A stretch of 36,905 nucleotides of DNA from a virus (Duplodnaviria > Heunggongvirae > Uroviricota > Caudoviricetes), in the IMG/VR virus record IMGVR_UViG_2645727604_000018; one strand, written 5' to 3'. Numbering within the stretch: position 1 is the stretch's first letter; each line of letters begins with the position of its first letter. Positions 30,001 to 33,000 of this stretch are shown one piece after another. A program made the position numbers.

Positions 30001-33000
30001 AATTCATTTGGTCTTGCGCTGAGTATTTCACGTACTAAATCAGATTCTGAAGCAAGATGCCTGTACGTCCCGTTTTGATTTTTTCTGTAAAGAGAGGGGA
30101 CAAGCTCATATGAGCTTTTAGAGTGTCCACGATAAAAGGTAATGAGACCATCACGAAAGTTTTTCTTTATGAAATTAAGATAATCTATAATATTCTCGAC
30201 TACTGGGTATGTTTGTTTTTTTAATTTGATTGTACCTTTGAGGTGACTATTTTGTTTGTTTAAACCAAGTGATTCCAGAACAATATTTAAATCCTTATTT
30301 TTTACTGCCCAATGTGTACGGCTTAACCCGAAAGATCCTAGCCCTAGGGTTTCTTTATATAATGTCGTTTGGGGATTCGTTATTTCTCCAAAATTATGAT
30401 TAATCTTGAAAGAAAATAAAATATCGCCACCATCTTTACGTAAATTTCTTATTTCCCCAAGTCTGATCCTGATGTACTTGTTTGTATCATATTCATCATC
30501 TTTTGTATAAGTTTCGGTCATGAACAATACTGGTAGCTTGGCGAGTTCTCTTAAGGTATCGGGTCTTATTGGTGTTAATTTACTGTAAATATCGCTTGGG
30601 GTGCCTTCCAGCATGCGGGACATCGAGAATCTTTCCTCGCCTTCTGTAAGCCCTGGGTCCATACACGGCCAGCGGTCAAAAACGTCCGGTTCTCCGGCCA
30701 TGATTAAGCTAAACATCGCAATCTCCTAAATTTACTTGCTAAAGTCAGTGTACTTTTATCATGTTGCTTCATTGTGTATGAAAGTAACATTGGTTGTCCA
30801 TGCTCGTTTGTCTCTCATAATTCACAAATTTGCGAATATTTTTTATAAAAAATTCAAAACAGATAGGTTGACACAATCAAAATTCACAAAGGGCACCTGC
30901 TTCTAATGTGGTTACGGCCCGATCATACGGGCAATGTCTTTCCATTATTGAAAACTCCGGGATCAACCATGATATATGAAGTCTCTTGCTATCCAGTTAA
31001 GTAAATGTCTGCTTCTCGCTCAAAGTGGGCTAGAAGGTTAGCTTGCGTCGGACTTGGCGTATTTAAAGAAGTGCTGGTGGTGACTGGTTATTGTGTTCCA
31101 TTTCTACAGAACAAAATCACAGAAACTATACCCAATAGTTGTATTGAATCACTGACGAGACAGCCTCATATTTATCAGGACTGATGTACGTCCAATACAG
31201 GAGGTTGTGGTGCTGGTTCTCAAATGTGCGCTGGCTATTGCTGCCTTAATGGCAATTTATTGCCTTGCTGTTGTTCTTATGGATCGCCTTTCTGACTGAT
31301 TTCATATTGGCGAGGTAACGGGAGTTAAGTAGAATGGCTGCGGGTGCTTGAGGCTATCTGTCTCAGGCATGAACACCAAAGGCAGATAGAGAAAAGCCCC
31401 AGTTAACATTACGCGTCCTGCAAGACGCTTAACATTAATCTGAGGCTCAATCTATGAACGGCAAATCTAGGTTAGCCTCTTACGTGCCGAAAGGCAAGGA
31501 GAAGCAGGCTATGAAGCAGCAAAAGGCGATGTTAATCGCCCTGATCGTCATCTGTTTAACCGTCATAGTGACGGCACTGGTAACGAGGAAAGACCTCTGC
31601 GAGGTACGAATCCGAACCGGCCAGACGGAGGTCGCTGTCTTCACAGCTTACGAACCTGAGGAGTAAGAGACCTGGCGGGGGAGAAATCCCTCGCCACCTC
31701 TGATGTGTCAGGCATCCTCAACGCACCCGCACTTAACCCGCTTCGGCGTTTTTTCCGTTGATTAACTCTAGTTATTAGAGAACCGAACTTTTATTGATGG
31801 GGCAGGGAGATGAAGAAACTTGTTTTAGTCGCAGGTGTAATGATTGCAACAGTAATGTTGGGAGGGTGTGCAGCAAAGGTCGATCCAGCGTTGAAAGCAG
31901 AAGCAATGAAGCCACTAACATGTAATGATGAAAAGCAATGTGACTTTTATTGGAAACGAGCGCAATTCTGGTTGGCTAATAATTCCTCATGGAAAATTCA
32001 AACGGCGACAGACACGCTAATTTCCACTTATAATCCCTCTCCAAATAGTCCATTCCTCGCTTATCAAGTGAGTAAAATGCCAAATGAAGATGGATCCTCA
32101 AGAATTTTCATCAAGCCTTTTTGCGATAATATGTTTGGCTGTCAACCAAACCCCTATCAGGCAGTTGTTTCCTTTAAAAACTTCGTTAAAACAGGGCAGT
32201 AGTGTATAGCTTGGACGATAAATTATTAGTGAAAACGCCGTAAACCCTCACCCAATGTGGACTAAGCCTATCAAACATGACTGTGATGATTAGTCCGTAG
32301 TTGTTGCCTATGAAATCTGGATTGAGTCAGGGTTTAATCCAATAATTCTTCTATCGTTCCTTTACAAGTCCGGTATATTACTTTCAGTTTGTTTTAGCAT
32401 ACCCGCTTCGGCGGGTTTTGTTTTTTCCTGGCATTCTGGTTTACAATTCGCACGCCAGCCTGAACAACTGGCACCTGCTGCGCCAGCAGAGACAACCGAT
32501 GGCGCACGATACCAAATTACACAATTCTGATGATTTTGCCGTCTTTGCCAGCAGGCACGGGCGGCGTTCCCGCACTTTCAAATCTGACTGGTTCCAGCAT
32601 GACCCATGCACTGAAGAACAGGCCGAGTGGCTAATTCAGTGCTACCGCAGACACGGATACGAGATTAAGAAAGCCCTCAGCCTCGATTATCGTCACTGGA
32701 TAATCTCCGTCAGGCTTCCTTACTCTGAACGCCCACCGCGTCCGTCCCGCACATTCCAGCAACGCATCTGGAGGTAACGTGCGGGTATTACTTCGACCTG
32801 TTCTGGTACCGGAACTCGGGCTGGTGATCGTTAAGCCGGGCCGTGAATCCATGCCGGTATTCCACAATACCCGGGTATTGGTGGAGCCGGAACCGAAAAG
32901 CATGCGTAATCTGCCGTCCGGGGTCGTTCCTGCCGTTCGCCAGCCGCTGGTGGAAGACAAAACATTGCTGCCGTTTTTCAGTAACGCACGGGTGATTCGT

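Follow-up and report, generated by a model that had tools for sequence, protein, structure and literature searches.

The closest described counterparts of the hokD locus considered here are plasmid R1's hok/sok locus and the hok loci on the Escherichia coli chromosome (Hok/Gef family PF01848, Rfam RF01794), which are characterized by a Hok protein of ~50 amino acids (aa), an overlapping mok frame, a Sok-target leader, the tac and fbi elements and a terminator. The locus is found in a virus record of 36,905 nucleotides (IMGVR_UViG_2645727604_000018; Duplodnaviria; Heunggongvirae; Uroviricota; Caudoviricetes), the whole of which is referred to as the window. Segment 31307-31754 of the window shows a full match to this system and no essential difference from R1 hok/sok; its mok is an in-frame extension of hok, and the locus is prophage-borne, not plasmid-borne. 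Outside the described hok/sok architecture, and directly upstream of it, stands a hydrophobic open reading frame (ORF) of 29 codons, here called P29. We understand the region, with a probability of about 0.6, as two adjacent modules, namely a complete hok/mok/sok locus and P29 as an autonomous accessory membrane peptide that would be made from a promoter of its own. The anatomy of both modules is shown here, P29 bears the mark of coding selection and is separable from hok, its distribution is narrow and its annotation is missing.

Two groups of small proteins offer themselves for comparison with P29. Short type I toxins such as TisB and ZorO (also ShoB and DinQ) consist of a single hydrophobic helix and a charged end, and MgtS, AcrZ, KdpF and PmrR are small proteins that cross the inner membrane once and modulate larger membrane proteins. 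P29 resembles the toxins TisB, ZorO, ShoB, DinQ, Lpt and AapA1 in length, single hydrophobic helix, charged end and location on a mobile element; unlike them, it comes without a detectable antisense or divergent small RNA, without a long structured 5' untranslated region and without conserved sequestration of its Shine-Dalgarno sequence (SD), and it has no sequence similarity to any described family. Lpt has 29 aa (PMC6811638) and AapA1 has 30 aa (PMC5416894). With MgtS, AcrZ, KdpF, PmrR and the moron membrane proteins of phages, P29 shares a size below 50 aa, one predicted helix and an ordinary strong ribosome-binding site; further likenesses are that no RNA antitoxin was found, a putative promoter of its own and an accessory position between conserved phage genes. 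Unlike these proteins, it has no terminator of its own, and there is no homology to any of them.

Among prophage-borne loci, hokW-sokW of Sakai prophage Sp5 occupies the same part of the lambdoid genome as the locus in the window; HokW is a toxin that sokW can neutralise, and an effect of the locus on phage release is described (PMC8621323). A small upstream ORF goes unmentioned in that paper and in the Hok survey, and O157-type loci keep only a decayed 3' remnant of P29. The relB-relE-hokD (relF) operon in the cryptic Qin prophage of E. coli K-12 is like the window in the HokD protein, the hok SD, the 3' fbi region and the terminator context, and it shares the prophage neighbourhood, with DUF968/ydfU and the Q antiterminator downstream. 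It differs in that promoter, tac, mok, sok and P29 are replaced by relBE, the window having the unrearranged form. PMC12214031 and PMC7232551, citing Pedersen & Gerdes 1999, attribute inactivation of K-12 hokD to a genomic rearrangement in which canonical toxin-antitoxin components were lost, and they describe the hokD homologue of the adherent-invasive E. coli strain NRG857c as apparently intact.

Coding evidence for P29

An earlier note on this DNA had pointed to an AGGAGG motif preceding a GTG-initiated hydrophobic ORF of 29 codons. Its coordinates proved exact (Table 1), and frame and SD are both conserved. The encoded product, (M/V)LVLKCALAIAALMAIYCLAVVLMDRLSD, is predicted to form a single transmembrane helix followed by an acidic/charged C-terminal tail (D-R-L-S-D); its grand average of hydropathy is 1.80, the uncharged core comprises 19 residues, and Lys5 is placed near the N-terminus. 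It is most likely a single-pass membrane peptide, its insertion into the membrane being suggested by this composition. The allele of BL21/REL606 reads MLVLKCTLAIVAVMAIYCLVIVLMDHLSD. A second in-frame GTG is present at 31207, but of the two positions only 31210 offers a start codon, GTG or ATG, in all alleles.

A codon-degenerate pattern scan of IMG/VR added more than 100 loci, and 130 copies of P29 were analysed. Start, SD, stop and frame are intact in 128 of them, representing 28 distinct alleles. The GGAG within the SD is conserved across all intact alleles. Start, GGAG, TGA and frame are retained in alleles of only 77-80% DNA identity (phage HannyBb, strain XJ6.1, a pINV plasmid and strain E10), and the 3-bp deletion seen in strain XJ6.1 is in frame. 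Variable sites are spread over the three codon positions as 13/5/20. The ratio of nonsynonymous (dN) to synonymous (dS) substitution is 0.28 for the whole ORF and 0.18 for codons 2-15, which are free of bias from the scan pattern, as are the BLAST-derived alleles; the other five frames give 0.40-1.32. Comparison of the window with the hok-less E10 reveals 16 differences (3/2/11 by codon position; dS 0.80, dN 0.086, ratio 0.11), comparison with pINV reveals 19 (9/1/9; dS 0.75, dN 0.14, ratio 0.19). The amino acid replacements are all conservative, involving exchange within A/V/I/L/M/T, D/E, R/H or L/F. A lone frameshifted allele (L090, 2 of the 130 copies) has AGAAAG in place of the SD, a substituted -35 element and a -10 element mutated to TGTATT; decay of frame, SD, -35 and -10 together is the pattern expected of a dead gene. 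Judged from these codon statistics, P29 is a genuine gene under purifying selection at the protein level.

Two other identities were considered for the peptide and rejected. As a lipoprotein signal peptide P29 is not convincing, for its AIYC does not constitute a lipobox and just 11 residues follow the Cys. A degenerate duplicate of Hok finds no profile match, and few identities across the helix are apparent by eye.

Separability of P29 and hok

The P29 and hok modules are separable in both directions. P29 is intact without hok in E10-type prophages, including one in a Shigella flexneri chromosome, and on 143 plasmids of Shigella and E. coli, where it precedes decayed hok promoter and leader sequences, ~290 bp upstream of the icsP gene. 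In O157 strain OK1 and in strain 2/0, by contrast, the hok promoter, leader and gene are kept with a P29 remnant of 6-10 codons, and the bulk of plasmid hok/sok loci is without P29. Allele L014 is a recombinant, window-type upstream and E10-type downstream, with the crossover at the 3' end of P29.

The pINV plasmid of the enteroinvasive E. coli (EIEC) strain VL7S7 (locus L006, 2470-2960) carries the P29 allele MLVLKGTLAIAAVMTIYCLIVVLMERFSD, a hok promoter of intact appearance (TTGGCG...TAGAAT) and a decayed hok leader. P29 and the hok relic occupy the same place in ~140 Shigella plasmids (e.g., NC_002698.1, 220153-220239), ~290 bp before the icsP start codon. Given P29, the hok promoter and the decayed leader at this site, part of the long icsP regulatory region is recognized as the relic of a prophage hok locus.

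Putative promoter and upstream region of P29

P29 has a putative sigma-70 promoter of its own (Table 1), from which a transcript start at ~31179 and a leader of ~31 nt are predicted. In the -10 element, CATATT, A2 and T6 are found in all intact alleles, which represent six or more unrelated left contexts, and the -35 element TTGAAx is kept with 17-nt spacing in most alleles though the sequence of the spacer diverges.

Further upstream, a non-coding block of ~130-190 bp is strongly conserved in ~95 of the 130 loci; in ~95 related loci of the 130, the left boundary of homology is placed at 31004-31016. At the start of the block (~31007-31036) there is an inverted repeat capable of forming a hairpin, GTCCGCT-N10-AGCGGAC in most alleles and rich in wobble pairs in the window. 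HannyBb, E10, XJ6.1, L022, L066 and L074 keep P29 without the block. A 59-aa ORF (31005-31184) was rejected as a gene, its ATG being lost in most alleles and a 1-nt indel being present in one lineage. As a small RNA or antitoxin the block finds no support: it gives no Rfam match, its two strands fold with z +0.66 and +0.73, and it has no complementarity to the P29 mRNA.

The hokD locus

Downstream of P29, the sequence elements identified make up, on their combined evidence, a complete hok/mok/sok locus (type I toxin-antitoxin) in a lambda-like prophage, for which toxicity and neutralisation are predicted. HokD matches PF01848 at 3e-23 (81.6 bits compared to a cutoff of 22) and is 100% identical to K-12 HokD, whose toxicity has been reported (bioRxiv 10.1101/2025.08.07.668861); RefSeq labels the gene hokD in near-identical genomes. 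The mok frame matches PHROG 251 ('MokW-like host killing') at 7.7e-33, and the homologous ORF of HannyBb is annotated as MokW-like. The Rfam model RF01794 (sok) aligns end to end with 31342-31516, scoring 110 bits compared to a gathering score of 59. The hok promoter begins 7 nt past the P29 stop codon and lies 6 nt before the point where the Rfam leader match begins; every hok-linked allele conserves it, and so does even the remnant on pINV. In the minimum free energy fold of 31342-31760, the tac and fbi segments are paired with each other, the energy of their duplex being -26.6 kcal/mol compared to a shuffle mean of -16.1 (sd 2.9). The minus strand of the Sok candidate folds into a long terminator hairpin with a U-rich tail, and it is from this fold together with the Rfam match that Sok is proposed.

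The SD of hokD is present as the earlier note had described it. Its portrayal of hokD as an orphan is not sustained, given the promoter, leader, mok frame, Sok candidate and fold-back element now recognized; the in-frame mok and the complete hok/sok leader had been omitted from it. The antisense regulator which it had suspected in the region finds a candidate in Sok, and that candidate belongs to hok, not to P29. The absence of relBE upstream, also stated there, is borne out: the best E that tblastn returns for K-12 RelB and RelE anywhere in the window is 0.49, and alignment with the K-12 relE-hokD region shows DNA homology starting only at ~31497, ~14 nt before the hok ATG, the K-12 sequence upstream being relE.

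Among 5,426 complete E. coli genomes, the full promoter-plus-leader stretch occurs in 4,207 and the K-12 relE-hokD junction in 1,167. The K-12 relBE-hokD arrangement is thus a rearranged, 5'-truncated minority form, and hokD without relBE represents the ordinary state in E. coli. The result corrects an expectation centred on K-12, in that an intact hok/mok/sok without relBE is the rule and K-12 the exception; the hok part of the window is already known biology in its common form.

Table 1. Coordinates of the P29 and hokD modules in the window
Feature	Position	Strand	Details
Conserved non-coding block upstream of P29	31016..31143		starts at junction with variable cargo
Putative sigma-70 promoter of P29	31144..31172	+	TTGAAT 31144-31149, 17-nt spacer, CATATT 31167-31172
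SD of P29 (AGGAGG)	31199-31204	+	5-nt spacer to start codon
Small ORF P29, 29-aa hydrophobic peptide	31210..31299	+	GTG at 31210, TGA at 31297-31299
hok promoter	31307..31335	+	TTGGCG 31307-31312, 17-nt spacer, TAGAAT 31330-31335; scan 9/12
Full-length hok mRNA (predicted)	31342..31754	+	tac 31342-31353, fbi 31716-31728, terminator hairpin and T-run 31739-31754
Sok antisense RNA candidate	31392..31472 (approximate ends)	-	complementary to mok translation-initiation region
mok-like frame, 70 aa	31454..31666	+	in-frame N-terminal extension of hok; GAGG upstream
hokD toxin gene, 51 aa	31511..31666	+	SD AAGGAG 31496-31501

Position 47 of HokD corresponds to a conserved Cys position, at which A-to-I editing of the mRNA is reported to supply Cys in hokC, hokD and hokE (PMC12214031). 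The window retains the Tyr47 codon TAC followed by G (UACG, 31649-31652). The hok terminator of the window (GCGTTTTTT, 31737-31754) has a 3-bp stem instead of the 5-bp CCCGC/GCGGG, a form found in 8 of ~87 loci, and the right mosaic junction of the hok module falls inside it. The window-type terminator goes together with a different cargo, a predicted lipoprotein of 130 aa (31810-32202; PHROG 16082, with a weak Cor-like match at E 0.007), where K-12 has rem. A terminator weakened in this way may allow read-through from hok into the lipoprotein gene.

Distribution and annotation of P29

A 206-bp query of the P29 region matches 3,060 of the 5,426 complete E. coli genomes by BLAST (coverage is 80% or higher in 1,847), as well as four E. 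coli phages; tblastn of the peptide against phages likewise returns four E. coli phages. Intact P29 was detected on 143 of 72,556 plasmids, all from Shigella or Escherichia, and the pINV virulence plasmids of each of the four Shigella species carry it. An IUPAC pattern scan of the GTDB species genomes was positive for Escherichia/Shigella and for three short contigs of metagenome-assembled genomes, which are probably mis-binned. Exhaustive HMMER search over 1.84 billion representatives gave 9 matches, all at least 83% identical, which are P29 itself with other N-terminal calls. Distant homologues were found neither by the GTDB pattern scan nor by the HMMER and phage tblastn searches, and no family match was obtained at E up to 10 in Pfam, NCBIfam and PHROGs, the Hok models of PF01848 and NCBIfam included.

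The P29-region matches in genomes almost never carry an annotated feature, and the interval from the FRG gene to hokD is empty in RefSeq. Exact look-up finds P29 entered sporadically, in some GenBank records, as 'hypothetical protein' or 'membrane protein' (REL606; a UniRef entry of Shigella flexneri) and never with a name. Literature search did not find the peptide strings in papers.

Discussion

In the reading we prefer, the two modules would be adjacent and separable elements between variable cargo genes of a Rac/Qin-like lambdoid prophage, in its early-right accessory region. The first, the hok/mok/sok locus at 31307-31754, would work in the manner established for R1 and hokW: a stable hok mRNA would be kept inert by fold-back of its 3' onto its 5' end, translation of hok would be coupled to that of mok, and antisense Sok would provide the repression. 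The K-12 relBE-hokD operon is a derivative formed by rearrangement, with loss of promoter, mok and sok, and lack of relBE in the window is therefore normal. P29, the second module, would be expressed autonomously, with its own -10/-35 elements and a consensus SD; transcription would come from its own promoter in the lysogen and from early-right read-through during induction. The peptide would insert in the inner membrane as a single-pass helix and play an accessory, moron-type role in it as a small membrane protein; possible tasks include modulation of a host or phage membrane component and exclusion of a superinfecting phage. Of the features that are typical of morons, variable presence and mosaic flanks are seen; the promoter is suggested by conservation, and a terminator belonging to P29 is lacking. 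We further propose, tentatively and with more doubt than confidence, that P29 is new in the sense of founding a family of membrane-active prophage peptides restricted to Escherichia/Shigella, acting either as a toxin whose RNA antitoxin is unconventional or absent, or by modulating Hok or a host membrane protein.

Several observations weigh against the autonomous accessory peptide. Its size and composition would fit a type I toxin just as well. The pattern used in the IMG/VR scan fixes part of the C-terminal half of P29, so that this half is biased, and the family is young and narrow (Escherichia/Shigella only), with part of its conservation reflecting recent common ancestry. The hok leader starts exactly 42 nt after the P29 stop in 93 of 97 hok-linked copies (of 112 that are classifiable); the four others have hok with a slightly divergent leader. 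No terminator between P29 and hok was found by scan, and co-transcription with some functional coupling is possible; read-through from P29 into hok is likely. The P29 promoter scores 8/12, under the threshold of the scan, its support being conservation, and in one subgroup of alleles (L045, L070, L075, L058, L110, L037, L105 and L040) the -35 TTGAAT is changed to TCTCAT (equivalent to 31142-31160). That subgroup, in which P29 is intact, gains an inverted repeat, CTCATC-AAT-GATGAG, just upstream of the -10 element, which could be an operator or reflect a different regulatory input.

The possibility that P29 is a second type I membrane toxin, held by an antisense or divergent small RNA in a tandem toxin array with hok/sok, draws on the likeness to TisB, ZorO, Lpt and AapA1 in length, single hydrophobic helix and short charged tail, which brings P29 within the small-hydrophobic-peptide definition of type I toxins (29 aa, one predicted transmembrane helix). 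P29 also adjoins a type I locus within a mobile element, selection keeps the peptide intact, and a conserved, unexplained non-coding block of ~190 bp stands directly upstream. This must be set against the RNA side of the locus, from which we judge the second toxin to be unlikely. The scan for minus-strand promoters and terminators over or beside P29 gave none (prediction only), excess structure is absent on either strand (z +1.03 for the P29 mRNA), and the predicted leader is short. The probability that the SD-start region is unpaired lies between 0.14 and 0.67 depending on the allele, and no pairing partner is conserved; the SD of the window allele looks partly paired, but the partner includes window-specific codons. 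A complementary repeat between upstream block and P29 mRNA was not found. Control by Sok was considered and dismissed, the duplex of Sok with the P29 initiation region lying at the shuffle median. A conserved divergent antitoxin gene in the upstream block is unlikely because six allele types keep P29 without the block. In sum, no antitoxin RNA is predicted for P29 by these tests, which are of prediction only and which a weakly signalled RNA could escape.

If P29 were instead a cis-acting frame or leader that tunes hok through promoter occlusion or a 5'-extended mRNA, the peptide itself being irrelevant, the constant distance to hok would find an explanation, with the P29 stop 7 nt before the hok -35 and at its fixed place before the hok mRNA start; a 5'-extended transcript from 31179 runs into hok without a terminator and still forms the tac/fbi fold. 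However, it is the amino acid sequence, beyond the frame, that is under purifying selection, P29 is intact in two independent contexts devoid of hok (E10-type prophages and pINV), and hok promoter and leader are kept where P29 is cut to 6-10 codons. No attenuator-like alternative structure exists for P29, there being no terminator before hok and no excess structure. The leader peptide that had been suggested earlier is contradicted by the same facts, and a role of this kind is improbable. Least probable is a non-functional relic, another suggestion of the earlier note, or a chance frame in DNA conserved for other reasons, perhaps as a linker for recombination between lambdoid mosaic modules or as an element lying upstream in the hok promoter. 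In favour of it, the L014 crossover places P29 at a mosaic junction, its last 30-40 nt persist with the hok promoter in loci missing the rest, and RefSeq is without it. Coding statistics have already largely refuted this: the excess of variable third positions, dN/dS well under that of the other five frames, dS of ~0.8 with dN of ~0.09 relative to E10 and the tolerance of an in-frame indel all point to selection on the protein. SD and start codon are conserved with interchange of ATG and GTG, and in the one dead allele SD, -35, -10 and frame are disrupted jointly.

P29 has importance in that more than half of the complete E. coli genomes contain the gene, as do lambdoid phages and ~140 Shigella/EIEC virulence plasmids, yet it stands outside RefSeq, Pfam, NCBIfam and PHROGs. 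It presents itself as a cheap and well-defined candidate for small-protein studies concerned with toxicity, superinfection exclusion or interaction with Hok or host membrane proteins.

Prophage setting

Near-identical DNA is found in the chromosomes of E. coli XDL (98.7%) and LF82 (95%), where it belongs to a Rac/Qin-like lambdoid prophage. The gene order there runs from repressor/cro-like genes through YdaT, a hypothetical protein and DUF977 to an FRG-domain gene in opposite orientation and hokD, after which come a hypothetical protein, DUF968 (YdfU), RusA and the Q antiterminator; the window shows this order too. A slot for variable cargo (window 29382-30716, minus strand) separates the DUF977 gene from the P29/hok module. 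The slot is filled by the FRG-domain protein in the window, XDL, LF82 and phage Tritos, by an ABC-three-component system with DUF2326 in XJ6.1, by QueH in E10 and strain 2/0, and by an alpha/beta hydrolase in O157 OK1; the junction from cargo to conserved module falls at 31004-31016 in most loci. P29 marks the fixed right-hand border of a hotspot for cargo or defence genes in Rac/Qin-like prophages. At the apparent left end of the prophage, genes for tRNA-Asn(gtt) (19350-19425, minus strand) and tRNA-Ser(cga) (20417-20506, plus strand) stand beside an ORF of 341 aa (20559-21584, minus strand), and given this arrangement the site is a probable tRNA-Ser integration site.

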